Made by a program: the position numbers and the translations under genes. Of a stretch of DNA of 64,000 bases, positions 22,320-53,700 are shown piece after piece. Numbering within the stretch: the stretch's first letter is position 1; each line of letters starts with the position of its first letter. The notes beneath the pieces are model-generated. The model was given only the letters and a program-made list of their open reading frames with translations, was not told the origin of the DNA and ran no database searches. Location of the stretch: the IMG/VR virus record IMGVR_UViG_3300031576_000015, positions 29,996 through 93,995 of that record; one strand, written 5' to 3'. The DNA comes from a virus (lineage: Duplodnaviria > Heunggongvirae > Uroviricota > Caudoviricetes).

Positions 22320-24536
22320 TTAGATCTCCCAGGTGGCCTGGAACATCTCCTCTTCCTTCATGCCCCGTGCCCAAGTTGTTACCTGCTTAGGCGTACGGTC
22401 AGGAGACGCTGTTGGCCGGCTTACCAATAGATAGCGTAGGGCGTCTAGTGCATGATCGTTGATCTTACGAGGCCTTTCCGGCTCGTTACGCCGGGACCGC
22501 CTAAGTGTGCTCAACTCGTCCCAGACATACTCCTTGAACTCCCGGATTAGGTTGGGTGCCATTCCAGATAGGATCTGGAGTTTGGGCCGGCCTGTGGTCG
22601 GGTCGAGCACGTTCAGGTACTTCTGGACAACGGCAATACCCGATCCTACGTCTCGTAAGGACTCGGCGACCGGAGCTTTCACGACAGGAACCCCGACCTC
22701 ATAGTACTGCTGGGCCGGGCTTTCTCCGGAGGTACCTTCCTTGTTGAACGCCGATGGGTCAATAAGGGAGTATTGGAACCGTTCTAGCGGTATCAGTTCC
22801 CCTGTCTTGTGATCCCTCATTGTGCGGCGCTTGCGAATCTCCTTGGCATGATCCATAGCCAAGGGGCCGGGCTGATAATACTCGTCGTAGATATAGACAG
22901 TACCGGTTGGGCTTATCGTTGCCCACAAGCAGACGGTAGGATTGCGGGTTCCATGATCGATAGTCCGATACCGGTGCCAGTATTCTGGTATCTCTCTTGT
23001 GAACTGACCATTGACCAGGACACCTGGGGAGAGATGCGTAGGAAGCAAATTGTAGACAAGACCGCCGGCTTCTTCCCAGGACCCGTAGTAGTGGCGTCTC
23101 TTCCACTCCTCCGGCATTGCCTCCATGTCAGCAATATAGTCCTCCGGCAGATTCTCTATGTTGTCTAAGGTGCTACCTTCGACCAGGACGTAGTCAGTGG
23201 GATCGAAGCCTGGTATCTTTCGGCGTCCAGAAGCTTCTTGCCCCTCCTGGGTGAAGAGCTGCCAGTACCAGTTGTGTCCTCGGTAGTTGGCTTCCAGAAA
23301 GGCGTATTGCCGGGGCAACGGGCCCCAGCGTCCCGACTGGCGGCGCAGGCGCTTCGTGAGCTCCTGCCAGTGTTCCTCAGTTATTCCGTCGTCATCTGCC
23401 TGGCTGATCCCGAAGAAGTTGAGGTTCTCACTGTTCTTGCTAGCATAGCCCCAGACCACATAATTGCCGGTTGTGGTCTCTAGAGCATAGACATCTTCTT
23501 CTCCATCTGGAGTAACCGAGACAATTTCTTCCTTACTCAGTGCTAACTTGCCCCGGCCGTCCAGAACTTCACGCAATCGTCCAGCTTTCGCGGGTCGGCA
23601 CAGTAATAGAAATCTGTGGATTCCGGCTATTCCGTCAGTAATTAAGTATTTGGTGCCTTCATCGCTATCCGACTTACTCCAGGAAAAGCCTAGCATGGCG
23701 AGGGCCAATTCGATTCGATCACAAACTTCGGGATTCGTCTTCCTATTCTGGAACAGTGATAGGGTAGTACCGTCCACATCCCGACGGACATTTCCCTCGC
23801 CGTCGAAGATTCCACCCAACCAAAGAGCAAGTTCATTCTGTTCTTCGGTAAGTGGAGTAATCAGTTTGGATACACGAGCCAAAACCAATCCGACTCGTGT
23901 TCTTCGATAATATGGGTCCTGGTCCATAGAGGGGGAATAGAGGGCTTTGAACCAGCGATGATCCGCTGTACAACGAATTATTTCGCCCGAGGTCAGTTGA
24001 ACCTTGACTATCGGCGCCCGAAGTTTGGCAACTGCTAGGATTGTTGCTGTGGTTGGTCTCCGGGTCTGCCCTTGGTTGCCTATATCAAAACCTATGATAT
24101 GGTCGCCGACCACTATCTGGTTGATTGGTTTATAGGACCAATCCGCCATAAGAATAGGGGCCTCCCCCGGATTACAACGGTACTTCCTGGGGTCTTCCAG
24201 GTTGCGGAAGAGGATGGTAGATGTCCCTTCCAACGTTGGGCCCGACCGTAGCTCTAGCACTCCCTCGCTTCTTCGCCACTTACGGATCAGACCCTGCGGC
24301 AGTATCTCAAAGAACTGCGGCACTAAGGTGTTGTTTAGTTCTGGATAGGTGTAACGGGCGAGGATCCCACGGGAGTCAGGGTACTTTGTTGCGATGGCGA
24401 TTGCGCGTCGACAGAAGGCGGACGTCTTTCCGCATCCCATTGTACCCACGTAGGCGGCATATCGCTTGCTAGTAGCGATGAATGCAGATTGCTTGGGATT
24501 CCACTTACGTTCGAACGTCTCAGTTTGTCGAGCCAT
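22320..24536 (-). CDS. terL: terminase large subunit carrying an intein
   Basis: 738-aa ORF; Walker A 'GTMGCGKTSA'; intein blocks A (C121), B 'GEIIRCTADHRWF', F 'DVYALETTTGNYVV', LAGLIDADG-like 'LWLGGIFDGEGNV'. Confidence 0.75.
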   Translation of the reverse strand: MARQTETFERKWNPKQSAFIATSKRYAAYVGTMGCGKTSAFCRRAIAIATKYPDSRGILARYTYPELNNTLVPQFFEILPQGLIRKWRRSEGVLELRSGPTLEGTSTILFRNLEDPRKYRCNPGEAPILMADWSYKPINQIVVGDHIIGFDIGNQGQTRRPTTATILAVAKLRAPIVKVQLTSGEIIRCTADHRWFKALYSPSMDQDPYYRRTRVGLVLARVSKLITPLTEEQNELALWLGGIFDGEGNVRRDVDGTTLSLFQNRKTNPEVCDRIELALAMLGFSWSKSDSDEGTKYLITDGIAGIHRFLLLCRPAKAGRLREVLDGRGKLALSKEEIVSVTPDGEEDVYALETTTGNYVVWGYASKNSENLNFFGISQADDDGITEEHWQELTKRLRRQSGRWGPLPRQYAFLEANYRGHNWYWQLFTQEGQEASGRRKIPGFDPTDYVLVEGSTLDNIENLPEDYIADMEAMPEEWKRRHYYGSWEEAGGLVYNLLPTHLSPGVLVNGQFTREIPEYWHRYRTIDHGTRNPTVCLWATISPTGTVYIYDEYYQPGPLAMDHAKEIRKRRTMRDHKTGELIPLERFQYSLIDPSAFNKEGTSGESPAQQYYEVGVPVVKAPVAESLRDVGSGIAVVQKYLNVLDPTTGRPKLQILSGMAPNLIREFKEYVWDELSTLRRSRRNEPERPRKINDHALDALRYLLVSRPTASPDRTPKQVTTWARGMKEEEMFQATWEI
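23433..24176 (-). mobile_element. intein with LAGLIDADG-type endonuclease domain inside terL (approximate boundaries, ~aa 121-368)
   Basis: Hint-domain blocks plus 'LGGIFDGEG'; terminase is ~250 aa longer than usual. Confidence 0.55.
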
Positions 24537-28309: not shown

Positions 28310-28387
28310 TGGAGGGCCGTGAGGGACTCGAACCCTCAACCTGCTGATTAAAAGTCAGCTGCGCGTGCCTGTTGCGCCTCCGGCCCG
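28310..28387 (-). tRNA. tRNA-Lys (anticodon TTT), CCA encoded
   Basis: Cloverleaf: T-arm GAGGG-TTCGAGT-CCCTC, anticodon loop CTTTTAA. Confidence 0.8.
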
Positions 28388-28560
28388 TGTCGTTTGATGT
28401 GGCAGGGTTTACACCGAAGCATACACTTGTGTATCTCATTTTGGAACGCCTGCTCTGTGGCGCTCCATAACTTGCCAATCACAAAGAGCTTAGTATTTGA
28501 GTCCCTATGATCGAATTCAAGGTTTTCTGCCGATCGGCAATCCACACACTGCCCGCCCAA
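28348..28560 (-). CDS. HNH endonuclease
   Basis: 70-aa ORF with 'CxxC..EFDHRD..N..CKPCH'; C-terminal tail overlaps tRNA-Lys. Confidence 0.7.
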   Translation of the reverse strand: MGGQCVDCRSAENLEFDHRDSNTKLFVIGKLWSATEQAFQNEIHKCMLRCKPCHIKRHGPEAQQARAADF

Positions 28561-28675
28561 TGACTGAACTGCGGCCGCCCGGCGCTTGTGATATCGAGCT
28601 AACTGATATCGCCGATGGTACTTGTTGTGTTGTGTTCGGACCTCAATTTATGTGGCATTTACCACTCCTTGAGGA

Positions 28676-28750
28676 TGGCCCGCCCGGCAGGAATCGAACC
28701 TGCGCATCAGCCTTCGCAGGGCCGTGGTCTATCCACTAGCCTACGGGCGG
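28676..28750 (-). tRNA. tRNA-Arg (anticodon GCG)
   Basis: T-arm GCAGG-TTCGATT-CCTGC; anticodon loop CTGCGAA; perfect 7-bp acceptor starting C1-G72; D-stem has one mismatch. Confidence 0.6.
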
Positions 28751-29023
28751 TTTGGTGGAGGCGACGGGGTATGGCCCCGTGTCCGGGCGACCGTTGTAGA
28801 ACACCGTTCACACCGGCGGGCTCAAGTCGGTTGTACTCGCCCGCTTGGTTCACTTACGGCCTCTCCGTACCGACGGCCGCCGTAAGCCGGTCAACTGGTT
28901 CCCGTCGATCAACACGCCCCCGGGTTTCTGCGGAAGAGGAGTTACCTCTTCCGTGGCCGCAGTCGATGCTTCAGTTCGCGGAATAACCATCCTTACACGA
29001 ACCTTTGCGACTCCGCATATTAT
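28751..29023 (-). other. structured GC-rich non-coding spacer of unknown nature, ending ...GCCTCCACCA
   Basis: 273 nt between two tRNA genes; perfect hairpin GGAAGAGG-TAAC-CCTCTTCC; 3' end is acceptor/CCA-like but no T-loop. Confidence 0.3.
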
Positions 29024-29100
29024 TGGAGGATCCGGGGAGATTCGGACTCCCGACCTAAGCGTTAGGACCGCCTCGCTCTAGTCCACTGAGCTACGGACCC
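29024..29100 (-). tRNA. tRNA-Arg (anticodon CCT)
   Basis: T-arm GGGAG-TCCGAAT-CTCCC; anticodon loop GTCCTAA; CCA encoded. Confidence 0.7.
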
Positions 29101-29104
29101 TCGA

Positions 29105-29445
29105 TAGTGTGGAGGAGTAGACTGATACGCCGGGTTCTGTGTAGGCCCATCATCTGTCTGGGCCGACCGTTACCGTATCGGCTCACTGCGTCCAACCCGG
29201 GGATCAGCGGGCAGCCTCATCTCCCTCAGTTAGGACTTGCACCAGGTAGAGTTTACCGCGTTTCACTCCCCACTTAAGGGGCTCGTCTCTGTGGCACTTG
29301 TCGTCGCGTCACCGCGCCAGGCCGTTAGCCTGTACCCTGCCCTATGGAGCCCGGACGTTCCTCTGTCAGTTGGGTGGTGTCTGTAGCGCCGCCGAGGCGG
29401 CTCCCACTACTGTCCAGCGATGGGCTTGTCTACTCCTCCACCCTC
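29105..29445 (-). ncRNA. rnpB: RNase P RNA (bacterial type A-like)
   Basis: Exact P4 strands: rc(29337-29356)=GTCCGGGCTCCATAGGGCAG with rc(29346-29361)=GGAACGTCCGGGCTCC, and rc(29129-29140)=ACAGAACCCGGC; 14-bp P1 pairs 29428-29441 with 29109-29122. Confidence 0.85.
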
Positions 29446-29456
29446 TATTGTACCAT

Positions 29457-29484
29457 ATAAAGCTGGTTTTGCAAGTACCTAGGA
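29457..29484 (-). promoter_or_regulatory. sigma70-like promoter for rnpB (TTGCAA-N16-TACAAT)
   Basis: -35 at 29484-29479 and -10 at 29462-29457 on the minus strand; predicted start site falls at the P1 5' end. Confidence 0.55.
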
Positions 29485-29640
29485 ACCAACATAGTGCATA
29501 ACGACATGCGAGTCCGCTGCAAGTAGGTTTATCAGTACCAAGTGTTAGTGCTTGATTCGAGGATCGTTTTACACGGACGGGGGGCTGTAGACTAAGTACG
29601 GAACCGGCTAGAATCTTACTGTCTTTTATCATTTCACACA

Positions 29641-29859
29641 CTAAAAAACGAGCAAAGACTGATCTTCATCGTCTGCCCGTCTCTGATCATTCCCTTGGTC
29701 CTCAAGACGGGCGTACCAGCGTTCAAGCTTTCCCACGAGTGTAGACAGGTCTCCTGCTCCCCACCGTGAGACAACTCTGCTCCAGGTATTCGCCTTCCAG
29801 AGGCGCTCTACCTGGTCCCACCAGATAAACAATTCTATCTCAGTTGCCCGCATTGTCAA
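29641..29859 (-). CDS. hypothetical small protein
   Basis: 72-aa ORF; its start codon lies inside a promoter-like element, so its reality is doubtful. Confidence 0.3.
   Translation of the reverse strand: MTMRATEIELFIWWDQVERLWKANTWSRVVSRWGAGDLSTLVGKLERWYARLEDQGNDQRRADDEDQSLLVF
29832..29859 (-). promoter_or_regulatory. candidate promoter TTGACA-N16-TAGAAT
   Basis: On the minus strand directly downstream of tRNA-Arg(TCT); overlaps the ATG of ORF 29641-29859. Confidence 0.35.
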
Positions 29860-29862
29860 GTT

Positions 29863-29938
29863 TGGCCCGCCCAGGAGGATTCGAACCCCCGACTTACCGG
29901 GTAGAAACCGGTTGTTCTGTCCACTGAACTATGGGCGG
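29863..29938 (-). tRNA. tRNA-Arg (anticodon TCT)
   Basis: Full cloverleaf; anticodon loop TTTCTAC; CCA encoded. Confidence 0.8.
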
Positions 29939-29939
29939 A

Positions 29940-30015
29940 TGGTACCCGCAGGTGGAGTTGAACCACCAATCAACGGTTTATAAGACCGTCCCGATCACCG
30001 TATCGGCTTGCGGGT
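29940..30015 (-). tRNA. tRNA-Ile (anticodon TAT)
   Basis: T-loop TTCAACT; anticodon loop CTTATAA; perfect acceptor; CCA encoded. Confidence 0.7.
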
Positions 30016-30016
30016 A

Positions 30017-30104
30017 GAGTCCCGGTCGAGGGATTGAACCTCAGTGGCCACCGTACGAACGGCCGTCCCGCTGCTTGCGCACTTGGCGGGCATTACCCCG
30101 GGTA
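30017..30104 (-). tRNA. tRNA-like element, identity unresolved (possibly type II)
   Basis: Good T-arm TGAGG-TTCAATC-CCTCG, but the acceptor and anticodon arm could not be paired canonically. Confidence 0.3.
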
Positions 30105-30190
30105 TGGCGGAGAGTGTGGGATTCGAACCCACGGGGCTTGCGCCCACGCGCTTTCCAGACGCGCCCACTAGGCCGCTATGGGAACTCTCC
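30105..30190 (-). tRNA. tRNA-Ser (anticodon GGA), type II
   Basis: Anticodon loop CTGGAAA; long variable arm GGGCGCAAGCCC; CCA encoded. Confidence 0.75.
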
Positions 30191-30191
30191 A

Positions 30192-30265
30192 TGGTAGGCG
30201 ACCAGGGACTCGAACCCCGCCGAGCGGTGTGTAGGACCGCTGCACTACCCCTATGCTAGTCGCCT
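30192..30265 (-). tRNA. tRNA-Val (anticodon TAC)
   Basis: Anticodon stem GCGGT/ACCGC, loop CCTACAC; CCA encoded. Confidence 0.75.
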
Positions 30266-30266
30266 T

Positions 30267-30351
30267 TGGTACCGAAGGAGAGATTCGAACTCTCACGGGA
30301 CAAGCCCACCGGGTTTTGAGGCCGACGCGTCTGCCATTCCGCCACTTCGGC
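30267..30351 (-). tRNA. tRNA-Leu (anticodon CAA), type II
   Basis: Anticodon loop CTCAAAA; long variable arm; CCA encoded. Confidence 0.65.
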
Positions 30352-30352
30352 A

Positions 30353-30436
30353 TGGTGCTGACGGTGGGACTCGAACCCACACGGTATAACCACGGGCTTC
30401 TAAGGCCCGCGTGTCTGCCAATTCCACCACGTCAGC
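30353..30436 (-). tRNA. tRNA-Leu (anticodon TAG), type II
   Basis: Anticodon stem CGGGC/GCCCG, loop CTTAGAA; CCA encoded. Confidence 0.75.
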
Positions 30437-30511
30437 TGGTTGGGGAAGTGGGATTCGAACCCACGACCTCTGGCTTCCGACGCCAGCATGCTTCCTCTGC
30501 ACCATCCCCCA
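30437..30511 (-). tRNA. tRNA-Pro (anticodon CGG)
   Basis: Anticodon stem CTGGC/GCCAG, loop GTCGGAA; CCA encoded. Confidence 0.75.
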
Positions 30512-30512
30512 T

Positions 30513-30561
30513 TGGTGGACCGACTGGGACTCGAACCAAGGACTTCCTGACTGCCTAGTTA
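30513..30561 (-). tRNA. half-tRNA-like fragment (CCA, acceptor 3' strand and T-arm only)
   Basis: 49 nt 'tggtggaccga-ctggg-actcgaa-ccaag...' with no D or anticodon arm; same 'tggtggaccg' start as the adjacent tRNA-Ala. Confidence 0.3.
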
Positions 30562-30635
30562 TGGTGGACCGGATAGGAGTCGAACCTACATTCTTCGCCA
30601 TGCCATGGCGCTGCGTTCCCATTACGCCACCGGCC
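30562..30635 (-). tRNA. tRNA-Ala (anticodon GGC)
   Basis: Anticodon loop ATGGCAT; D-stem GCGT/ACGC; CCA encoded. Confidence 0.7.
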
Positions 30636-30878
30636 CACTCTTACAGACGATTTACCTATGATACTTTCAGCCGGTATGAGATAATCTTCCCCACCGGCTG
30701 TAAGAATATAAAGCAGATCAAAGTCTCCCGCCTGATATATTCTATGAGTATTTCTGCCGTAGGTCCGTAGTGGTACTTCGTAGCACCTGCCTACTTTATG
30801 AGACGTGTATTTGCATTGCACACGTTTCAAACGGCCATCCTGCTCAATCACTAAATCATATTTTGATCCATATAGCAT
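30636..30878 (-). CDS. hypothetical protein in an AT-rich island (possible small nuclease)
   Basis: ORF 30555-30878; 'GDFDLLYIL...GEDYLIP' is PD-(D/E)xK-like; composition differs from the flanks; the listed C-terminus reads through tRNA-Ala. Confidence 0.3.
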
Positions 30879-30952
30879 GACCTACAGCTATATTTCCTTT
30901 CGTGTTGCTATTCATGATGCTCTCCTTTTGGAGAGCCTGGCTGGCAGCTTCT

Positions 30953-31022
30953 ATGGCCTACAGAGATTCGAACTCTGCTTTCCAGCCGAACGGCTGGCGT
31001 TCTCCCACTGAACTATCGGCCC
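30953..31022 (-). tRNA. aberrant tRNA-like gene (possible pseudo-tRNA; Glu or Asn-like loop)
   Basis: Clean T-arm CAGAG-TTCGAAT-CTCTG and D-arm, but a 6-nt anticodon loop (CCAGC-CGTTCG-GCTGG) and two acceptor mismatches. Confidence 0.35.
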
Positions 31023-31023
31023 T

Positions 31024-31098
31024 TGGCTCCAAGGGTAGGATTCGAACCTACAACCAACCGGTTAACAGCCGGCCGCTCTACCGTTGAGCTACCTTGGA
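31024..31098 (-). tRNA. tRNA-Asn (anticodon GTT)
   Basis: Anticodon loop CTGTTAA; perfect acceptor; CCA encoded. Confidence 0.8.
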
Positions 31099-31099
31099 A

Positions 31100-31174
31100 T
31101 GGAGCGGAGAACGGGACTCGAACCCGCGACCTCGTCCTTGGCAAAGACGCGTTCTACCACTGAACTATCTCCGC
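31100..31174 (-). tRNA. tRNA-Gly (anticodon GCC)
   Basis: Anticodon loop TTGCCAA; perfect acceptor; CCA encoded. Confidence 0.8.
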
Positions 31175-31180
31175 ATGTTT

Positions 31181-31317
31181 GGTCTTCGCTGGACTCGAAC
31201 CAGCGTCTCCAGCTCTTGGGTGCTATTGCTCCGGCGTTACTAATAAATTGTTGCAACAATTCAATAGTGCTCCGGCATGACACCAGCTGGCGTCCTCGCC
31301 ATCTAGACGAGAAGACC
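31181..31317 (-). tRNA. tRNA gene interrupted by a ~64-nt insertion or intron in the anticodon arm; anticodon unresolved
   Basis: Perfect acceptor GGTCTTC/GAAGACC, D-arm, T-arm GCTGG-TTCGAGT-CCAGC and anticodon stem CCAGC/GCTGG separated by 71 nt containing the palindrome AATTGTTGCAACAATT. Confidence 0.5.
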
Positions 31318-31318
31318 T

Positions 31319-31394
31319 TGGTGAGCCCGAGAGGAATCGAACCTCCACTGAACCGTGTTTAAGACGGCTCCCTCTGCCCTTGGGGTACGGACTC
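31319..31394 (-). tRNA. tRNA with anticodon TAA (Leu UUA/UUG) but a short variable arm (type I)
   Basis: Anticodon loop CTTAAAC with stem GCCGT/ACGGT; 5-nt variable region; A73; CCA encoded. Confidence 0.55.
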
Positions 31395-31396
31395 AT

Positions 31397-31471
31397 GGTG
31401 GGCCAGGTAGGACTCGAACCTACGACCTCCTGCGTGTCGAGCAGGCGCCCTAACCACTGGGCGACTGGCCC
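31397..31471 (-). tRNA. tRNA-Val (anticodon GAC)
   Basis: Anticodon stem CCTGC/GCAGG, loop TCGACAC; perfect acceptor; CCA encoded. Confidence 0.8.
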
Positions 31472-31472
31472 T

Positions 31473-31546
31473 TGGAGCGGGTACCGAGACTCGAACCCGG
31501 TCCTCTTGCTTGGAAGGCAAGGGCACAACCCTTATGCAATACCCGC
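31473..31546 (-). tRNA. tRNA-Gly (anticodon TCC)
   Basis: Anticodon stem CTTGC/GCAAG, loop CTTCCAA; CCA encoded. Confidence 0.75.
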
Positions 31547-31547
31547 A

Positions 31548-31633
31548 TGGTGTCCGGAGAGGGACTCGAACCCTCACGATGATTAGTCACAGGCTTCTGA
31601 GGCCTGCGCGTCTGCCAATTCCGCCATCCAGAC
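31548..31633 (-). tRNA. tRNA-Leu (anticodon CAG), type II
   Basis: Anticodon stem CAGGC/GCCTG, loop CTCAGAA; long variable arm. Confidence 0.75.
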
Positions 31634-31711
31634 TGGGGTGACCGATGGGATTTGAACCCACGTTTACCTGGTTCACAGCCAGGCGCCTTAGACCACTAGG
31701 CCACGGCCACC
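31634..31711 (-). tRNA. tRNA-His (anticodon GTG) with encoded G-1
   Basis: Anticodon loop CTGTGAA; extra 5' G pairing with C73; CCA encoded. Confidence 0.8.
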
Positions 31712-31712
31712 A

Positions 31713-31797
31713 TGGTGTCGTCGGGGGGACTCGAACCCCCACGTCTGTTCAACACAAGGCTCTCGACCTTGCGCGTCTGCCATTTCGCCACGACGAC
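31713..31797 (-). tRNA. tRNA-Leu (anticodon GAG), type II
   Basis: Anticodon stem CAAGG/CCTTG, loop TCGAGAG; long variable arm. Confidence 0.65.
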
Positions 31798-31799
31798 AC

Positions 31800-32054
31800 T
31801 TACCTCTTATCGGTTGGACGATAGATTCCTTGCTTGATGTAACCCTGTACCATACTCTCGAGCCGCGAGATCAGCTCGCTGGGCTTCGATCCATGGATCA
31901 TGGCCGGCATCCAACCCGGTGATCGCTCGACAGTCCCACTGGGACGCTTGCGCACATTCCAGATTGGTATGACGACCTTGGTGATGAATCCGTAGATTCC
32001 GTATCCACTGTTGTACTGCGGGGTGATCTTGATCTCATGCCGAATCTTCGGCTT
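31800..32054 (-). CDS. hypothetical protein (84 aa)
   Basis: ATG at 32054 with GGAGGG RBS; the longer listed ORF start runs through tRNA genes. Confidence 0.45.
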   Translation of the reverse strand, partial: KPKIRHEIKITPQYNSGYGIYGFITKVVIPIWNVRKRPSGTVERSPGWMPAMIHGSKPSELISRLESMVQGYIKQGIYRPTDKR

Positions 32055-32075
32055 GCGCTCCATGATCACCCTCCG

Positions 32076-32127
32076 ATAAGGAGATGGTGGAGGCTCGGGA
32101 ATCGGACCCGATTCTTGGCGACCACGC
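32076..32127 (-). tRNA. half-tRNA-like element (CCA, acceptor and T-arm plus a short hairpin)
   Basis: 52 nt; T-arm TCGGG-TCCGATT-CCCGA; ends CCTCCACCA directly upstream of the RBS of gene 31800-32054. Confidence 0.3.
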
Positions 32128-32202
32128 TGCCCCCCCATGGTCGGGCCGGGCGGGATCGAACCGCCGACTTCATGCACCCCATGCATGCGTGCTACCGCTG
32201 CA
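32128..32202 (-). tRNA. tRNA-Pro (anticodon GGG)
   Basis: Anticodon stem CATGC/GCATG, loop ATGGGGT; perfect acceptor; CCA encoded. Confidence 0.8.
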
Positions 32203-32203
32203 C

Positions 32204-32277
32204 TACGGCCCGATGGTCAGGGAACGGGGATTCGAACCCCGGACACTAGCTCCCAAAGCTAGCGTGTTACCTCTACA
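32204..32277 (-). tRNA. tRNA-Pro (anticodon TGG)
   Basis: Anticodon stem CTAGC/GCTAG, loop TTTGGGA; perfect acceptor; CCA encoded. Confidence 0.8.
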
Positions 32278-32278
32278 C

Positions 32279-32354
32279 TATTCCCTGTTGGTACTGAGGG
32301 GTGGATTCGAACCACCGATCTTCCGGGTATGAACCGGTTGCTCTGACCACTGAG
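32279..32354 (-). tRNA. tRNA-Met elongator or tRNA-Ile2 (anticodon CAT)
   Basis: Anticodon loop TTCATAC; G1-U72; no initiator features. Confidence 0.65.
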
Positions 32355-32356
32355 CT

Positions 32357-32442
32357 ACCCCAGCATTGGCGGAAGGGAGGAGAGTCGAACTCCTATGCCC
32401 TTTCGGGCGCCCGTTTTCAAGACGGGACCGATACCGTTCCGG
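32357..32442 (-). tRNA. tRNA-Ser (anticodon TGA), type II
   Basis: Anticodon stem CCCGT/ACGGG, loop CTTGAAA; variable arm GCCCGAAAGGGC. Confidence 0.75.
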
Positions 32443-32443
32443 T

Positions 32444-32518
32444 CACCCTTCCATGGTAGCCCCAAGGGGAGTCGAACCCCTCTTCGCAGTTTGAAAGGCT
32501 GCTGTCCTCACCGATAGA
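32444..32518 (-). tRNA. tRNA-Glu (anticodon TTC)
   Basis: Anticodon loop CTTTCAA; one mismatch at 31:39; CCA encoded. Confidence 0.65.
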
Positions 32519-32519
32519 C

Positions 32520-32595
32520 GATGGGGCTGTGGTGGACCAGGTTGGAATCGAACCAACAACCTCCTGTTTATCAGACAGGCTGTCTTACCATTGGC
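32520..32595 (-). tRNA. tRNA-Ile (anticodon GAT)
   Basis: Anticodon stem CCTGT/ACAGG, loop CTGATAA; perfect acceptor; CCA encoded. Confidence 0.8.
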
Positions 32596-32596
32596 A

Positions 32597-32673
32597 TACT
32601 GGTCCATGGAGGGCCTCTGGGGACTCGAACCCCAAACCTGCTGTTTAAGAGACAGCTGCTCTAGCCTGTTGAG
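32597..32673 (-). tRNA. tRNA-Lys (anticodon CTT)
   Basis: Anticodon stem GCTGT/ACAGC, loop CTCTTAA; perfect acceptor; CCA encoded. Confidence 0.8.
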
Positions 32674-32675
32674 CT

Positions 32676-32745
32676 AGAGGCCCGATGGCAGATTGCCGAC
32701 GAATCGAACGCCGCTGCGTGGTTTTGGAGACCTCGCTGATCCCAG
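32676..32745 (-). tRNA. aberrant 70-nt tRNA-like gene (non-canonical D and anticodon arms)
   Basis: T-arm CGGCG-TTCGATT-CGTCG and 7-bp acceptor present, but the internal 35 nt fold as GATC-TGG-GATC plus an irregular arm. Confidence 0.3.
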
Positions 32746-32746
32746 A

Positions 32747-32820
32747 TCGCAACCTATGGCGGTCCCAAGGAGGATCGAACTCCCGACTCAGCCGTGACAG
32801 GGCCGTGTTTTGCCACTAAA
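32747..32820 (-). tRNA. tRNA-Asp (anticodon GTC)
   Basis: Anticodon loop CTGTCAC; D-stem GTTT/AAAC; perfect acceptor; CCA encoded. Confidence 0.75.
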
Positions 32821-32821
32821 C

Positions 32822-32897
32822 TATGGGACCATGGAACACCCGGAGGGAATCGAACCCCCGACCACTGCGTTCGAAGCGCAGCACTCTGTCCACTGAG
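32822..32897 (-). tRNA. tRNA-Arg (anticodon TCG)
   Basis: Anticodon stem CTGCG/CGCAG, loop CTTCGAA; CCA encoded. Confidence 0.8.
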
Positions 32898-32898
32898 T

Positions 32899-32973
32899 TA
32901 CGGGTGCATGGAGGCGGCGGAGGGATTCGAACCCCCGGATAGATGGTTTGCAGCCATCTGCCTTTCCTCTTGG
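32899..32973 (-). tRNA. tRNA-Cys (anticodon GCA)
   Basis: Anticodon stem GATGG/CCATC, loop CTGCAAA; CCA encoded. Confidence 0.8.
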
Positions 32974-32974
32974 C

Positions 32975-33049
32975 TACGCCGTCTTGGTGACCCTACGGAG
33001 AGTCGAACTCCGCTTTCCGCCTTGAGAGGGCGGTGTCCTGACCGATAGA
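32975..33049 (-). tRNA. tRNA-Glu (anticodon CTC)
   Basis: Anticodon stem CCGCC/GGCGG, loop CTCTCAA; CCA encoded. Confidence 0.75.
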
Positions 33050-33051
33050 CG

Positions 33052-33125
33052 ACAGGGTCGATGGTGGAGGGACGGGGAATCGAACCCCGAAGTCCTGCGT
33101 GCAAAGCAGGCAGTTGCCCATTAGC
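33052..33125 (-). tRNA. tRNA-Ala (anticodon TGC)
   Basis: Anticodon stem CCTGC/GCAGG, loop TTTGCAC; CCA encoded. Confidence 0.75.
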
Positions 33126-33126
33126 T

Positions 33127-33201
33127 TATCCCCCCATGGTGGATAGGGACGGAATCGAACCGCCGACGCCGGGCTCTTCAGACCCGCGCTCTACCCCTGA
33201 G
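33127..33201 (-). tRNA. tRNA-Phe (anticodon GAA)
   Basis: Anticodon loop CTGAAGA; perfect acceptor and D-stem; CCA encoded. Confidence 0.8.
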
Positions 33202-33292
33202 CTACCTATCCATGGAATGGCGACAGCGGGGCAACCAGCCCCACCCGCTTCACCGTCAGTCGGTCGTTACGCAACGCGGCTCAGTCGGCCCG

Positions 33293-33484
33293 TCAGCCAA
33301 CCTCAACGCCACGGCGGGCTTTTACCCGCACCCGGCCATCCACTGGTTTGTAGGGACCGAGACGTGCCACCCCGGTGGGGCAGCCGACCCTGCACCGGTA
33401 GCACTGCGGTACCTTCCGACAGTTAGCGACCTTCCCAGGCTTAGGAAGTGCCTTCCCCGCGTGAACAACGGGGGCCTCGGCCAT
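33293..33484 (-). CDS. possible leaderless small Cys-rich protein (CX5CX2CX3CP); may instead be a structured ncRNA
   Basis: ATG at 33484 sits ~+1 of a consensus promoter; 63 codons, GC-rich with many hairpins; no RBS. Confidence 0.3.
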   Translation of the reverse strand: MAEAPVVHAGKALPKPGKVANCRKVPQCYRCRVGCPTGVARLGPYKPVDGRVRVKARRGVEVG

Positions 33485-33487
33485 GCC

Positions 33488-33515
33488 GCCACATTTCATT
33501 ATAGCACACTACCAG
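33488..33515 (-). promoter_or_regulatory. near-consensus sigma70 promoter TTGACA-N16-TATAAT with extended TG
   Basis: -35 at 33515-33510 and -10 at 33493-33488 on the minus strand; drives the downstream tRNA run. Confidence 0.7.
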
Positions 33516-33532
33516 ATCTTGTCAAGTACCGC

Positions 33533-33620
33533 AGACTAAATTTGGCGGAGGGCCGGAGATTCGAACTCCGACGGGCAGACGCCCGACTACCGGCTTCGAA
33601 CCGGATACGTTGCCGTTCCG
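33533..33620 (-). tRNA. tRNA-Ser (anticodon CGA), type II
   Basis: Anticodon loop TTCGAAG; variable arm GGGCGTCTGCCC; CCA encoded. Confidence 0.7.
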
Positions 33621-33621
33621 T

Positions 33622-33716
33622 CAACCCTCCATGGCGATGAGAGTGGGATTCGAACCCACGGGCCAGGCTCATTGCCCAGCCACCCGCTTAGCAGGCGGGT
33701 GCTTTCGACCACTCAG
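33622..33716 (-). tRNA. tRNA-Ser (anticodon GCT), type II with 22-nt variable arm
   Basis: Anticodon stem CCCGC/GCGGG, loop CTGCTAA; CCA encoded. Confidence 0.75.
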
Positions 33717-33791
33717 CCATCTCACCTGGAGCCCTTGACGAGGATCGAACTCGTGACCTCCGCCTTACCAAGGCGACGCACTACCACTATG
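33717..33791 (-). tRNA. tRNA-Thr (anticodon GGT)
   Basis: Anticodon loop TTGGTAA; perfect acceptor; CCA encoded. Confidence 0.75.
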
Positions 33792-33792
33792 C

Positions 33793-33867
33793 TACAAGGG
33801 CCTGGAGCCGAAGAGCGGATTCGAACCGCCAACCTACACTTTACGAAAGTGCCGCGCTACCGTTGCG
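33793..33867 (-). tRNA. tRNA-Thr (anticodon CGT)
   Basis: Anticodon loop TTCGTAA; D-stem GCGC/GCGC; CCA encoded. Confidence 0.75.
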
Positions 33868-33868
33868 C

Positions 33869-33943
33869 CACTCCGGCATGGTTGCGGGGGCAGGAATCGC
33901 ACCTGCGACCTGCTGGGTATGAGCCAGCCGAGCTGCTACTGCT
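33869..33943 (-). tRNA. initiator tRNA-fMet (anticodon CAT)
   Basis: Acceptor CGCGGGG...CCCCGCA-A-CCA with C1:A72 mismatch, identical to the E. coli initiator acceptor; anticodon loop CTCATAC; T-loop TGCGATT. Confidence 0.7.
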
Positions 33944-33958
33944 CCACCCCGCGTGATG

Positions 33959-34045
33959 GTGTAGAGAATGGTGGGCAGGGTAGGACTCGAACCTACGAAG
34001 GCCCGAAGGCCGTGTGGTCTACAGCCACATGCAATAGCCGCTATG
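33959..34045 (-). tRNA. tRNA-Tyr (anticodon GTA), type II
   Basis: Anticodon stem TGTGG/CCACA, loop CTGTAGA; long variable arm; CCA encoded. Confidence 0.75.
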
Positions 34046-34430
34046 CGACCTGCCCTTTACGTTTCCGAGCTAAATCTAGAGAGTATTTTGCTGGGTCTTC
34101 TCGGCGCCGGCGCATTCGCATACGACGCCCTTCTTTCTCCGAAGACCATTTCTTCCACGGTTTACTAGACGCGCTTATATTACACTTAATGTGACTGTAA
34201 CTGATATTTTTTACATCAAAGAAGGCCGCTCTTGGGTCGTCCGCACCCTGCCACGGCGTCATGTGCTCTATAGAAAAATCTTCAATAGCATTTATTGGAT
34301 TTCCGCATTGGAAACATCGGTTCTCTCCAAGGCGACAAATCAAAGAGAACAGAATAGCCTTTCTCAATTTATTTGTGGCAGTACCATACGGCATGCCAAG
34401 CTGGTTTGCCTTTTTTGCATTATTACCCAT
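34041..34430 (-). CDS. HNH endonuclease
   Basis: 129-aa ORF with 'CFQCG..IEHMTPW..N..SHIKCN'; Lys/Arg-rich C-tail. Confidence 0.7.
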   Translation of the reverse strand: MGNNAKKANQLGMPYGTATNKLRKAILFSLICRLGENRCFQCGNPINAIEDFSIEHMTPWQGADDPRAAFFDVKNISYSHIKCNISASSKPWKKWSSEKEGRRMRMRRRREDPAKYSLDLARKRKGQVA

Positions 34431-34452
34431 CTCTGGCCTCCGCCATTGACGT

Positions 34453-34529
34453 GGAGCCGAGTACAGGATTCGAACCTGCTACCTGCCGCTTACAAGGCGG
34501 CCGCTCTACCCAGTTGAGCTAACCCGGCA
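34453..34529 (-). tRNA. tRNA-Thr (anticodon TGT)
   Basis: Anticodon stem GCCGC/GCGGC, loop CTTGTAA; CCA encoded. Confidence 0.8.
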
Positions 34530-34543
34530 AGTTTTACAACACA

Positions 34544-34825
34544 TTACGCAGTTGGTGCGTCACTCCGGCGGGAGGCTTTCTCACGCCTCCGGTGGCACGC
34601 CTCGCAGAGAACCACACACTTGTCTATCTCTGCTTGCAGCCTCTTCGAACCTACAAAATGCCGCTCGTGGGACGCGTTCCCGATAGTAAAGGACTTCTCC
34701 GTCCGGTCCAGGTGATGGAAGGTCAGGTTCGTCGTAGCCCCGCAGTCCTTACAGAAGACCCGGTTCTCGACAATCTGTGCCATCGCCTGGCGTTCCTTGA
34801 GACGGTTACGAGCCGCACCCTTCAT
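34544..34825 (-). CDS. HNH endonuclease
   Basis: 'CKDCG..FHHLD..N..CEACHRR'; start moved to M13 (34825) because the listed N-terminus overlaps tRNA-Gln. Confidence 0.7.
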   Translation of the reverse strand: MKGAARNRLKERQAMAQIVENRVFCKDCGATTNLTFHHLDRTEKSFTIGNASHERHFVGSKRLQAEIDKCVVLCEACHRRREKASRRSDAPTA

Positions 34826-34832
34826 ATCAGTT

Positions 34833-34906
34833 GGTTGGGGAGGAAGGAGTCGAACCCTCATTCACAGGTTCAAAGCCTGTTGTCCTGCCGTTAAACGACT
34901 CCCCAA
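34833..34906 (-). tRNA. tRNA-Gln (anticodon TTG)
   Basis: Anticodon stem ACAGG/CCTGT, loop CTTTGAA; perfect acceptor; CCA encoded. Confidence 0.75.
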
Positions 34907-34907
34907 T

Positions 34908-34980
34908 GGCTGCGAGACAAGGATTCGAACCTCGGCTTCAGGGTTCAGAGCCCTGCGTCCTACCACTAGACGATCCCGCA
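34908..34980 (-). tRNA. tRNA-Gln (anticodon CTG)
   Basis: Anticodon stem CAGGG/CCCTG, loop CTCTGAA; CCA encoded. Confidence 0.75.
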
Positions 34981-35015: not shown

Positions 35016-35043
35016 ATTATACCACACTTTTGGCGTTTGTCAA
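35016..35043 (-). promoter_or_regulatory. near-consensus sigma70 promoter TTGACA-N16-TATAAT with extended TG
   Basis: -35 at 35043-35038; -10 at 35021-35016, overlapping the def stop codon; preceded by a CCCCGAAAGGG hairpin. Confidence 0.7.
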
Positions 35044-40274: not shown

Positions 40275-40634
40275 ATGAACCATAGGCCGCTTGATGTGCT
40301 CGACCTGTTTCTCCTACCTGTAGCATGGCTGATGCTGAACTTGAGCCTTATATGCATCAGGGCGTCCCGCCTCTTCCTGAAGGTGGCGAACGTCGTGGAC
40401 AGTGCTGCTCTACGGGTGGCACGGACCACTAGGGAGGAAGCGGAAAGAGGTTCAGCAGACACAGCCTCCCTACTTGCCATCGCCGGGCTTCTTACCCTGA
40501 TTGGAGCCTGGAAGTTGTTCAATACCCTTACTGTGCCACCATCCGTCCTCTTCGGCCTTGCGGTAATCACTTTAGTGGTACTCGGTGCCACGTTGGCCTT
40601 GATGGCATGGACAAGGATGCTAGACGATGGCTAA
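40275..40634 (+). CDS. integral membrane protein
   Basis: 119-aa ORF with three or more hydrophobic helices. Confidence 0.4.
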   Translation: MNHRPLDVLDLFLLPVAWLMLNLSLICIRASRLFLKVANVVDSAALRVARTTREEAERGSADTASLLAIAGLLTLIGAWKLFNTLTVPPSVLFGLAVITLVVLGATLALMAWTRMLDDG

Positions 40635-41469
40635 ACTCGAAGGCGCACAACTTGCCGAACAGTACCACGGTGAACCTCTGCCCTATCCGCATCTGCTCGA
40701 ACCGAAACTCGACGGGCTGCGCGGGATTGCCCTCATCAGCGATGATGAGATACGGTTTGTCAGCCGGAACGGCAAACCGTATCACAACACAGAGGCAGTA
40801 GCCAACAACATCCGTGACCTGGGCCTAACAGGAGAATGGGTGCTGGACGGGGAACTATTTGTGGATGACTGGAACACCACAGCCCACACCGTCCGGTCAG
40901 AGAAGCGCGTCATCGAATACGACAGGCTCATGTTCATCATCTTCGACATCATGGAGAGGGAGGATTGGGACGCCGGGCGAAGCAAGTCCACGCTCCAACA
41001 GAGGTGGGACGCCCTGGTATACCTCATCGGGACTGATGAGTTCTCAAACATCAGACTCTCCCCGCACCGCATGGTGTCCACGCCAGAGGAAGTCTACGTC
41101 GCCGCCCGTGAGTTTGTTGCCCGGGGGTACGAAGGGGCCATGCTGAAGGACCCAAGGGCTATCTATCAGCGGCGTAGGTGGTCGGCGTGGCGCAAGGTAA
41201 AGTTCGCGAACGACTACGACGTTGTGGTCGTGGGCGTCCAGCCGGGCGAAGGCCGGCACAAGGGCAGGCTCGGTGCCATCGTATTCGAGCATAACGGGAT
41301 TCGCTCGGAGGTGGGCACGGGCCTGACTGACACCCAACGTGACGAACTGTGGACGTTGTATCAGCAGGGTGGGCTGGTAGGCAAGACCATCGAGATAACA
41401 TCACAGGAGATTACAGGCGGCGGCCACCATCGCTTCCCGGTCTTTGTGCGATTGAGGGAGGATAAGTAG
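40627..41469 (+). CDS. ATP-dependent DNA ligase (minimal type)
   Basis: 280-aa ORF with adenylation motif I 'EPKLDGLR' (KxDG) and a downstream nucleotidyltransferase core. Confidence 0.7.
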   Translation: MAKLEGAQLAEQYHGEPLPYPHLLEPKLDGLRGIALISDDEIRFVSRNGKPYHNTEAVANNIRDLGLTGEWVLDGELFVDDWNTTAHTVRSEKRVIEYDRLMFIIFDIMEREDWDAGRSKSTLQQRWDALVYLIGTDEFSNIRLSPHRMVSTPEEVYVAAREFVARGYEGAMLKDPRAIYQRRRWSAWRKVKFANDYDVVVVGVQPGEGRHKGRLGAIVFEHNGIRSEVGTGLTDTQRDELWTLYQQGGLVGKTIEITSQEITGGGHHRFPVFVRLREDK

Positions 41470-41813: not shown

Positions 41814-42842
41814 ATGGCATCACTTGCAAAGTTCGTGCTCGTCTTGATTGCCCTGGGCGTAGGTGCGCTACTAACCCTGCGCCTTCGCGCTGTCAAGGAT
41901 TCCCGCACTGGACAGACCGAGAGTGTGCTCGGCTACAGCATCGGCGGAGCCGTCGTTTCGATGTTCCTGCTCATCGGCGCCTTCGCTCTTACGCCCGCTT
42001 TCGGGTACATCCCCGTCGGCCACCGTGGGCTGGTCGTTGGCCCAAGCGGCGTCGTCATGATTGACACCAACAGCGACGGCAGGACTGACACAGGTAAGGT
42101 ACTTGGGGAGGGGTTCTACTTCGTGACTCCGTTCCTCTACAACGTCGAAGTTCTATCTGTCAGGACGGAAGCATTTACTGCGGAGGCAGAGGCCGCATCC
42201 AGTGATTTGCAGGATGTGAAGGCCACAGTCACCATCAACTACCGTATCGAGCCGAACAATGTCTGGCGCATCTATCAGCAACTCGGCACCGACTGGCAGG
42301 CCAAGGTGTTCACCCCTGCCGTGCAGGAGGCTGTAAAAGCCAGCACGGCCCAGTTCAACGCCGAAGACCTCATTCAGCAGCGACCCAAAGTAGCGTCTGC
42401 CATCCGGTCGGTGCTGGAACACCGTGGGCAACTCTTCGGATTCGAGATTCAGGCCGTGTCCATCGTGAACTTCAACTTCGGTGCGGAGTTCAATAAGGCT
42501 GTCGAAGCGAAGGCCAGGGCCACCCAGGAAGCCCAGACCGCCGAGCGTAACGTGCAGCGAGTAAGGGCGGAGCAGCAGCAGAAGATCCTGGAGTACCAAG
42601 CCGATGCCACCCGGCGACAACTGGAACTTGAAGCCCAGGCCGCAGGGCAGAAGGCGCAGTTGCAAAGCATCACACCGATGCTGATTCAACTACGGTACGC
42701 TGACGCTGCCCTTGAGATGTCCAAGCGGTGGGATGGCAAGACCCCACTCTGGATGACCGGCACCGGCGGGCTATCTACGCTGTTACAGGTGGCACCGCCA
42801 ACGGAACGGCCACCGGGCGCGCCTGCAGGCGTTGGCCGGTAA
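41814..42842 (+). CDS. SPFH/band-7 (prohibitin/HflK-like) membrane protein
   Basis: 342-aa ORF with N-terminal TM helix, SPFH core, and a Gln/Ala-rich coiled-coil C-terminus; AGGAGG RBS. Confidence 0.7.
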   Translation: MASLAKFVLVLIALGVGALLTLRLRAVKDSRTGQTESVLGYSIGGAVVSMFLLIGAFALTPAFGYIPVGHRGLVVGPSGVVMIDTNSDGRTDTGKVLGEGFYFVTPFLYNVEVLSVRTEAFTAEAEAASSDLQDVKATVTINYRIEPNNVWRIYQQLGTDWQAKVFTPAVQEAVKASTAQFNAEDLIQQRPKVASAIRSVLEHRGQLFGFEIQAVSIVNFNFGAEFNKAVEAKARATQEAQTAERNVQRVRAEQQQKILEYQADATRRQLELEAQAAGQKAQLQSITPMLIQLRYADAALEMSKRWDGKTPLWMTGTGGLSTLLQVAPPTERPPGAPAGVGR

Positions 42843-53561: not shown

Positions 53562-53700
53562 GACCGCTCCGTAGACTCCGGTCTATCTTCGGTGGTAATA
53601 TCTATCGCCTAAGCCTAGCCGGGGAAAGGGCGAAGGGACGTAAGACCAGGGACGCCCACCGATGGGCCGTACACGGCTTCAAGGCACGTTCCGCGATGGA
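53434..53700 (+). pseudogene. frameshifted LAGLIDADG homing endonuclease remnant sharing Ku's MRSYWS start
   Basis: Frame 1: MRSYWSSLTEKEKLLWAAGFLEGEGNF...stop at 53572; frame 2 continues ...SIFGGNIYRLSLAGERAKG...(HE C-terminal 'GGxIY' region). Confidence 0.55.

Follow-up and report, generated by a model that had tools for sequence, protein, structure and literature searches.

The window analysed here (64,000 nt, positions 29,996 to 93,995 of the IMG/VR virus record IMGVR_UViG_3300031576_000015) belongs to a phage genome with a long tRNA array, in which one tRNA frame (31181-31317) is interrupted in its anticodon arm by a structured insert. Our preferred reading, which we hold tentatively, is that this element is an interrupted class-I tRNA gene of an unexplained class that recurs among phages, and that this particular copy does not decode. 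We base it, on one side, on the products of excision (none with U33, and only anticodons that other tRNAs already supply), on the lack of an encoded CCA and on the lack of a homologue in the sister lineage and, on the other side, on the failure to find splicing or CCA-adding enzymes, a bulge–helix–bulge (BHB) motif or any Rfam family, and on the patchwork neighbourhood of the element (30500-31320). Here and below, searches of the genome for enzymes, partner proteins and repeated copies cover about 88% of it, i.e., the open reading frames (ORFs) of the window plus about 20 kb of flanking genome, examined for Pfam families. The window copy is not a full member of the class, because excision gives no canonical loop and no conservation is demonstrable, and it may be just a dead gene.

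Structure of the Interrupted tRNA Gene

A first-pass annotation of the window had noticed a tRNA gene split in its anticodon arm. This is borne out, and all the sequence features that it listed are present, on a strand that has to be corrected to minus, the RNA sense running from 31317 to 31181. By direct reading, the acceptor stem (GGUCUUC/GAAGACC) shows Watson–Crick pairing at 7/7 positions, the D arm is GUCU-AGAUGGCGA-GGAC, G18 and G19 included, the anticodon stem (CCAGC/GCUGG) and the T arm (GCUGG-UUCGAGU-CCAGC) each pair 5/5, and the variable loop has 4 nt (AGAC), while the tertiary and invariant positions (U8, A14, G15-C48, A21, G53, U54 U55 C56, A58, C61) are all kept. The two strands of the anticodon stem are indeed separated, by 72 nt instead of the 71 nt first counted, so that the surplus, previously put at about 64 nt, amounts to 65 nt if a 7-nt loop is assumed and to 64 nt if an 8-nt loop is assumed; the junction of the insert is ambiguous in this respect because GC is repeated at both of its ends. 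The element and its parts are:

31181-31317, minus strand: whole interrupted tRNA frame, 137 nt (sequence; ARAGORN intron mode; frame scanner; fold z -4.4)
31286-31317, minus strand: 5' part (direct reading; ARAGORN cloverleaf), with the acceptor 5' strand at 31311-31317, then U8 and C9, the D arm at 31292-31308, G26, and CCAGC at 31286-31290
31214-31285, minus strand: 72 nt between the anticodon-stem strands, i.e., a 7-8-nt loop remnant plus the 64-65-nt insert
31181-31213, minus strand: 3' part, with GCUGG at 31209-31213, AGAC, the T arm at 31188-31204 and the acceptor 3' strand at 31181-31187
31175-31180, minus strand: discriminator A73 and trailer AACAU, without encoded CCA
31246-31261: perfect 16-nt palindrome AATTGTTGCAACAATT, core of an imperfect 28-nt palindrome (31240-31267)
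31268-31276, minus strand: direct repeat, copy 1, 9 nt, GCCGGAGCA in RNA sense
31227-31235, minus strand: direct repeat, copy 2, 9 nt, GCCGGAGCA in RNA sense

According to a strict tRNA-frame scanner, this 137-nt element is the only over-long frame in the array, and no such frame appears across 50 shuffles. In intron mode, ARAGORN describes it as a 73-nt tRNA with a 65-nt intron, and folding of its full length gives -55.1 kcal/mol (z = -4.4). It is missed by default ARAGORN and by the Rfam tRNA model, which leave an empty stretch of 144 nt between tRNA-Leu(UAA) (ending at 31319) and tRNA-Gly(GCC) (starting at 31174). Its first nucleotide lies 1 nt past the CCA of the preceding tRNA, the same spacing as among the neighbours, and its tail reads A-AACAU, without CCA; 42 of the 43 ARAGORN-called tRNAs of the array encode CCA, followed by 0-2 nt, and the only other one that does not is an aberrant tRNA left without a name by the program (“???”). 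As for its identity, the body, of class I, combines a D arm of the Glu/Gln/Gly type with a variable loop of 4 nt and lends no support to the Trp- or Leu-like tRNA first proposed. A Gly(CCC) identity was considered, the window having no Gly(CCC) and the 3' junction reading CCCAAG, and rejected, as it needs a 2-nt register shift and a G-G mismatch.

Palindromes can be library artefacts, and a palindromic insertion might have been made by chimeric or fold-back reads during assembly. The element is base-identical in a MEGAHIT contig (ENA ERZ27247320) and in a Logan contig (SRR8536157), hence not peculiar to one assembler; both assemblies may come from the same reads, but the two assemblers rely on different algorithms. 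Moreover, the site is in the middle of a 94-kb contig, where the insert separates precisely the two pairing strands of one tRNA, and analogous inserts exist in many unrelated contigs. We give an artefact practically no credence.

The Insert and the Products of Its Excision

The GC content of the insert region is 44%, against 63% for the tRNA body. Both the perfect palindrome and the flanking direct repeats (9 nt, written TGCTCCGGC, at 31227-31235 and 31268-31276) are as first reported. The palindrome AATTGTTGCAACAATT is unique in the window, where its sole other match carries 3 mismatches. The arm folds at -29.6 kcal/mol (z = -4.1) into an irregular hairpin that is coaxial with the anticodon stem and comprises, in order, CCAGCU/AGCUGG, a 4-nt bulge, GGUGU/GCACC, CCGG/CCGG and, on top, the palindrome hairpin. 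Neither a promoter nor a terminator was found inside the insert.

These features had suggested a tiny mobile insertion, which is not demonstrable. The insert is single-copy in the examined part of the genome; it shares no k-mer of 11 nt or more with the rest of the genome, 10-mers being at chance level, and a templated insertion from elsewhere in the genome was rejected on that ground. No exact match to the exons or to the insert was found in IMG/VR, so the proposed search of other phage genomes came back empty. A host-derived mobile element was likewise rejected: among 185,579 GTDB species genomes, which hold no source, a 20-mer core matches eight, with flanks that are all random. A miniature inverted-repeat transposable element or insertion sequence would account for the palindrome and the 9-nt repeats, but deleting the palindrome and one repeat leaves a “loop” of 31 nt and restores no tRNA, and such elements are expected in multiple copies. 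A palindrome that is perfect up to and including its centre would suit an event at the DNA level better than selection for a hairpin in the RNA.

To describe what excision could yield, we enumerated every single contiguous excision leaving a 7- or 8-nt loop and a variable loop of 4-5 nt. One excision restores the 5-bp stem CCAGC/GCUGG (P = 0.045 by chance, from shuffled middles). No single excision restores U33: the loop products run from CCCAAGA and UCCAAGA through to UGGUGUC, always with C33 or G33, and there are 0 canonical solutions. The anticodons that can be reached in this way (CAA, GAA, GUA, GUG) all duplicate those of normal tRNAs in the array. Unspliced, the element is no functional elongator tRNA either, with 72 nt between its stem strands and no encoded CCA. 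Compared with a tRNA pseudogene, it has lost its loop and its CCA, yet all its stems and tertiary positions are intact.

The first-pass annotation had likened the insert to an archaeal- or eukaryal-type tRNA intron and had proposed to fold it for a BHB. A programmatic search found none at the exon/insert junctions, where the minimum-free-energy structure has a single 4-nt bulge, on the 3' strand; RtcB, RNA ligase, PNK, splicing endonuclease (EndA) and CCA-adding enzyme were not found in the examined part of the genome. With a bacterial host (see below) and no canonical loop in addition, we abandon this comparison. That the insert is too short for a group I intron is upheld, and a group I remnant was rejected too, since the insert has 65 nt and RF00028 gives no match (E <= 10 locally, E <= 5 across the array). 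No ribozyme or other Rfam family matches the insert even at permissive thresholds, which speaks against the small self-cleaving ribozymes (hammerhead, twister, pistol, hatchet, HDV-like/theta). Theta/HDV-like ribozymes do accompany phage tRNAs, where they are located 3' of the tRNA (PMC10879173), and were further rejected on position and topology, as the only long-range pairing closes a plain hairpin and not a double pseudoknot.

Over-Long tRNA Frames in Other Phages

An insert of this kind had been called unexpected in a phage tRNA. The element does lie in a phage; its novelty has to be qualified, both by 24 comparable frames in IMG/VR and by the tRNAs of Lak megaphages, which contain conserved “enigmatic introns” for which the authors offered no mechanism, while stating that phage tRNA introns had been unreported before (PMC6784885). 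A frame of this kind, of 189 nt and additional to those 24, lies on an unrelated 98-kb phage contig (L037, 3235-3423) and has perfect acceptor, D and T arms. Scanning IMG/VR with a gapped pattern (a Glu-type D arm 70-96 nt from the T loop) returned 52 loci (L045-L096), and, in 22 of the 43 instances of the pattern, 117-136 nt are spanned by one acceptor stem, usually paired 7/7. On those loci, a general scanner recovers 31 over-long frames (24 non-redundant) vs. 118 normal ones, with several D-arm types. The over-long frames measure 107-217 nt and come from unrelated phage contigs, three of which are marked as bacteriophage by their tmRNAs. The Rfam tRNA model is above threshold on several frames and places 58-64 extra nt inside the anticodon stem-loop; none of the comparison frames has a BHB at its junctions. 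Interrupted frames are thereby shown to recur in many unrelated phage contigs.

The window element groups with the 6 of 15 stem-restoring frames that have non-canonical loops (e.g., AAUCCAA, with A33, in three independent frames, or C33 in L085). Its insert has no sequence relation to any other insert and alone has a near-perfect palindrome at its core, with direct repeats on either side.

Regarding the other frames themselves, the one on L037 has about 140 nt from D arm to T arm (vs. about 22 normally) and lies about 380 nt upstream of a Ro60/TROVE gene (3806-5206), near a class I tRNA synthetase gene. Further examples are found at 529-648 and 659-779 of L058, 6261-6379 and 6800-6935 of L054, 9835-9976 of L067 (reverse complement) and 10761-10893 of L072. 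The insertion point varies among the frames (after nt 27-37) and often falls within the 5' strand of the anticodon stem. In one family, of high GC, the insert has an internal T-arm-like hairpin, and the low-GC inserts share an ACAGCA motif. Apparent “introns” at 1005-1297 of L037 and in L077/L088 were rejected as forced joins across separate tRNAs or fragments.

Decay or Splicing

Several observations weigh against taking the window copy for a non-decoding one. First, its tRNA body is flawless, with 21/21 stem pairs and the tertiary positions intact, which is unexpected for an old pseudogene; the loss of CCA requires at least two substitutions, alongside a body without decay, and the insert is placed exactly between the stem strands and stacked on them. 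Second, among the comparison frames, one excision restores a canonical arm (5-bp stem, U33, R37) in 9/24, with 0.27 expected from shuffled middles, and a 5-bp stem with any loop in 15/24, with 1.36 expected; in four frames with different stems (GGAGC/GCUCC, CAGGC/GCCUG, ACGGC/GCCGU, GCGGU/ACCGC), the strands can pair once the insert is excised and not before. The anticodons recovered in this way make sense: Gln in bodies of the Gln type, Gly and, at position 37/38, Thr. Since canonical arms come back so far above chance, over-long phage tRNA frames behave, as a class, like real introns, and the IMG/VR frames match and extend the “enigmatic introns” of Lak. Third, non-U33 products are also obtained from L054a, L075b, L059 and L085, and the absence of U33 is for this reason weaker as evidence of death.

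These observations bear on the possibility that the insert is a genuine short intron of an uncharacterised bacterial or phage kind, whose hairpin would be cut out and whose halves would be ligated. RNase III or RNase E-type cuts could leave 5'-phosphate and 3'-hydroxyl ends for an ATP-dependent ligase to seal, giving a 72-73-nt tRNA with the loop U-C-CAA-G-A, or the 8-nt loop ACCCAAGA, to which a host enzyme would add CCA; the spliced junction would join GACGCCAGC(U) to (A)CCCAAGAGCUGG. In its favour, a non-random class of interrupted phage tRNA frames exists, Lak megaphages have their conserved introns (PMC6784885), and non-U33 loops arise from other members of the class as well; the window element has an intact body and a perfect 5-bp stem upon excision (P = 0.045), it is accepted by the intron mode of ARAGORN, and the phage encodes both an ATP-dependent ligase and its own RNase P RNA. 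Conversely, no product has U33, CCA is missing though every normal member of the array has it, the anticodon would be redundant with existing tRNAs, no splicing motif is recognisable, nor any splicing enzyme in the examined part of the genome, the sister phage is without the element, and the insert is unrelated to all other inserts. We know of no bacterial splicing pathway for such short tRNA introns. It is mainly the class-level statistics that keep splicing in contention, and for the window copy we consider it doubtful, though with a real chance of being correct.

The tRNA Array and Its Surroundings

The array (28310-34980, minus strand) comprises 43 ARAGORN-called tRNA genes and a type-A RNase P RNA. 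The features that matter most for the element are:

33498-33525, minus strand: nearest upstream promoter, TTGACA-16-TATAAT, 12/12, with TG
30952-31023, minus strand: aberrant tRNA “???”, with a 6-nt loop (CGUUCG), two acceptor mismatches and no CCA
30637-30915, minus strand: decayed free-standing PD-(D/E)XK homing-endonuclease gene (PF11645), about 300 nt downstream of the element
29110-29404, minus strand: bacterial type-A RNase P RNA, phage-encoded, 156 bits, with P13/P14 absent and P12 short

No terminator-like site was found between the promoter and the element, which would therefore be co-transcribed with its neighbours.

In the “???” tRNA, the anticodon stem and its flanks (G-CCAGC...GCUGG-A) are identical to those of the interrupted tRNA, and such sharing of a stem is rare (only 2/903 pairs of array tRNAs). 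In the D-arm region it matches the neighbouring Gly(GCC) at 95% identity. It resembles a mosaic or decaying gene and may be linked to the interrupted tRNA.

The remnant of the nuclease gene scores 36 bits (cut-off 26) over positions 34-108 of the 138 of the PF11645 profile, with an N-terminal piece in another frame. Intact homologues (114-130 aa) are free-standing and located inside tRNA clusters in 4/4 sampled contexts, always next to tRNA-Tyr, i.e., in two bacterial chromosomes (L039, L041) and two phage arrays (L037, L043). We take I-Ssp6803I to belong to PF11645. The group I intron that interrupts tRNA-fMet has I-Ssp6803I as its homing endonuclease (PMC1995217); a direct, profile-free sequence search of the nuclease ORF against its solved structure gave no match.

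Three HNH-type ORFs (CxxC...HH...CxxCH) occupy gaps of the array on the minus strand (34544-34861, 34041-34430 and 28348-28560), of which only the first has a Pfam HNH match, a weak one. Three uncalled pieces were also seen on that strand: a 50-nt tRNA 3' half with an ACCA end, immediately following Ala(GGC) (30512-30561); a mini tRNA-like piece of about 54 nt (~32084-32137) with an acceptor, one hairpin, a T arm and an ACCA end; and an 89-nt tRNA-like element (30016-30104) with an acceptor-like stem, two hairpins and a T arm but no CCA. Outside the array, the phage encodes Ku (53662-54546, plus strand) and a minimal ATP-dependent DNA ligase (40627-41469, plus strand), a potential end-joining pair. 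Taken together, the nuclease remnant, the HNH-type ORFs, the tRNA fragments, the shared stem, and Ku with its ligase fit an array that has been repeatedly cut and repaired, a picture that does not prove how the insert arose.

Selection might then have acted on the DNA, if the insert, by breaking up the symmetry of the anticodon stem-loop DNA, conferred immunity to a homing endonuclease or integrase that recognises such sites, or if the palindrome bound a dimeric protein, the RNA being a by-product. The decayed PF11645 gene about 300 nt away, with its intact homologues in tRNA clusters, would agree with this, as would the stem G-CCAGC...GCTGG-A shared by the two aberrant tRNAs, the perfect palindrome itself and the availability of Ku and ligase for mutagenic end joining. 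However, the intact homologues adjoin tRNA-Tyr and not this type of tRNA, the ORF has no sequence link to the solved I-Ssp6803I structure, and neither a second copy of the palindrome that would mark a regulon (in the examined part of the genome) nor a promoter or terminator signature was found. We regard selection at the DNA level as very unlikely.

Other observations concern the array at large. Sigma-70 promoters at 35016-35043 (12/12), 33498-33525 (12/12) and 29832-29859 (11/12), all on the minus strand and the first two with an extended -10 TG, are placed so as to transcribe the tRNA array as well as the stretch upstream of the RNase P RNA. The RNase P RNA is conserved in the sister lineage (L001, ~5909-6211), and no earlier report of a phage-encoded one surfaced in a literature search across 7.7 million PMC papers plus bioRxiv. 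The UAA tRNA (31319-31394, minus strand), called as Leu, is of class-I size (76-77 nt), with a 3-bp D stem, A73 and no long variable arm, and this unusual gene is conserved in both phages (L001, 3886-3962). The only tRNA-Trp(CCA) (32686-32756, minus strand) has about 70 nt including CCA and a D arm with a 4-bp stem, a 3-nt loop and no G18 G19; it is below the Rfam tRNA threshold, its ARAGORN call overlaps tRNA-Asp, and the Trp tRNA of the sister phage is normal.

Phage Genome, Host and Relatives

The genome measures about 93.9 kb, is circular or terminally redundant and has 56% GC. It is that of a phage, as it encodes a portal protein, a large terminase (with an intein) and major head/capsid proteins. 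The large terminase (738 aa; 22320-24536, minus strand) has its intein at residues ~112-373, similar to inteins of mycobacteriophage portal genes, and its homologue in L001 (491 aa) is without intein. Side genes include an ABC-transporter permease with an NMT1-type binding protein (50423-52271, plus strand) and an SPFH/Band 7 protein (41814-42842, plus strand).

The best full-length matches of the terminase are haloviruses (26-27% identity), which suggested an archaeal virus, in whose host an intron would be nothing unusual; this was rejected on bacterial markers. The host is bacterial because the initiator tRNA shows C1xA72, tRNA-His has an encoded G-1, the promoters are of the sigma-70 type, a peptide deformylase gene lies just upstream and the RNase P RNA scores best as type A.

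The phage belongs to a very rare lineage: in terminase-based scans, the only related lineage found was L001/L022/L023, with a terminase that is 79% identical. This sister lineage also has 43 tRNAs and an RNase P RNA, in an array whose order is shuffled, and no homologue of the interrupted tRNA was found in it. IMG/VR, JGI metagenomes and 5.8 billion proteins yielded no other relatives, and the anchor ORF falls in only two clusters among those proteins. A search based on RNase P RNA led to one unrelated contig, without tRNAs, and no DNA similarity to GenBank phages was detected.

Possible Fate of the Transcript and Significance

If the copy in the window is indeed an interrupted, non-decoding tRNA gene, the sigma-70 promoter at 33525-33498 would drive its transcription together with the rest of the tRNA operon. 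Because the acceptor/T-arm module is intact, its 5' end would be cut by RNase P, either the host enzyme or one with the RNA of the phage itself, and its 3' end would be set by trimming once RNase P has cut the next tRNA, 6 nt downstream. The product may persist as a tRNA-like RNA of ~137-142 nt, with a long arm instead of an anticodon loop, or be degraded; it would be neither aminoacylated nor used by the ribosome. As to origin, the abundance of homing-endonuclease genes and tRNA fragments in the array, together with Ku and the ATP-dependent ligase, would fit a DNA-level insertion or rearrangement into the anticodon-loop DNA, or to the horizontal gain of an already interrupted gene.

A persistent RNA of this shape could have a function other than decoding, either by drawing off host anticodon nucleases, modification enzymes or defence sensors, in the manner of a decoy or sponge, or by serving as a scaffold for the hairpin. 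Phage tRNAs are known to counter tRNA-targeting defences (PMC10264068, PMC11464382, PMC11555353), and the perfect body with its highly structured arm, predicted to be expressed from a strong promoter within an operon, would suit such a role; in addition, the tRNA cluster of T4 keeps two stable non-tRNA RNAs (139 and 119 nt) next to a homing endonuclease, and 6/15 stem-restoring members of the class have non-canonical loops. Against this purely inferential idea, no conservation can be demonstrated, the sister lineage being without the element, the anticodon loop, which is the usual target of the nucleases, is precisely the part that is missing, and no partner protein such as Ro/TROVE is seen in the examined part of the genome. 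A non-decoding function appears distinctly unlikely to us.

To our knowledge, bacteria have only self-splicing (group I) introns in their tRNA genes, and short inserts of the present kind have been noted once before, as “enigmatic”, in Lak megaphages. The boldest view would be that short inserts (about 42-70 nt), neither group I nor BHB, are removed from anticodon arms across phages by an undescribed pathway, and that the window element too is spliced, to a C33 or an 8-nt loop; we deem this unlikely. Yet the class raises a testable question, namely whether splicing of short tRNA introns takes place among bacteria and their phages and what would carry it out. If it does, an undescribed route of tRNA splicing operates there; if not, phages produce a family of tRNA-shaped RNAs with another job. 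The window copy is a tractable test case (small phage, strong promoters, own RNase P RNA), yet an atypical one and, should it be dead, it would mainly illustrate the churning of phage tRNA arrays by homing endonucleases and break repair.

Comparison with Known Systems

Among tRNA-related RNAs, YrlA (RF02553) resembles the element in joining a tRNA-like module to a long helix, and the work of the Wolin lab on bacterial Y RNAs reportedly places YrlA-type RNAs in phages near tRNA arrays. Unlike the element, whose order of arms is canonical, YrlA is permuted: its T arm comes before its D arm, and both ends of the molecule are part of the long stem. The match itself is spurious (17.2 bits vs. a threshold of 69 bits) and bridges two genes, and no TROVE protein is seen in the examined part of the genome.

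RNAs C and D of T4 (species 1 and 2; 139 and 119 nt) are alike in size, in being tightly packed directly after a tRNA, in an operon with a free-standing homing endonuclease (segB), and in a product that does not decode or, for the element, probably does not. In the T4 genome (NC_000866, 70908-71171), rnaC and rnaD are packed after tRNA-Arg and adjoin segB; in rnaC the T arm is canonical and the termini pair, but a D arm is missing, and rnaD has no tRNA features. Lacking a D arm or anticodon-stem frame and any sequence relation to the element, they were rejected as structural homologues and have only context and size in common with it. Closer at hand, the pseudogenes and fragments of phage tRNA arrays are alike in that the same array holds fragments and that the element is itself without anticodon loop and CCA; they differ in that its body shows no decay and that what disrupts it is a structured insert, placed precisely between the two strands of the stem.

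Archaeal and eukaryal BHB introns share with the insert its short length, its place in the anticodon arm of an otherwise normal tRNA and the pairing that extends the anticodon stem. In contrast, the element has no 3-4-3 BHB and a bacterial host, U33 is not restored, and neither EndA nor RtcB was found in the examined part of the genome.

Group I introns have a P3-P9 core and measure roughly 200 nt or more. Those known from bacterial tRNA anticodon loops, i.e., in tRNA-Leu(UAA), in the tRNA-fMet associated with I-Ssp6803I (PMC1995217) and in Patescibacteria (PMC13011429), are alike in site, the anticodon loop of a bacterial-type tRNA gene, and in that a PF11645 gene lies near the element. They are unlike in that the insert has only 65 nt, while the nuclease gene stands by itself, is decayed and is separated from the element by a distance of three tRNAs.

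The nearest counterparts are the interrupted frames of Lak and IMG/VR. The Lak phages are megaphages, unlike the present one (~94 kb, 56% GC), and 9/24 frames, but not the window element, regain a canonical loop whose anticodon makes sense (Gln, Gly, Thr). The likeness is nonetheless extensive: in all of them, phage tRNA genes exceed the normal length by tens of nt located in the anticodon arm (42-70 nt vs. 64-65 nt in the window element), with no group I features, no known splicing mechanism and differences in presence/absence between relatives, and the window element regains a 5-bp stem upon excision, as do 15 of the 24.

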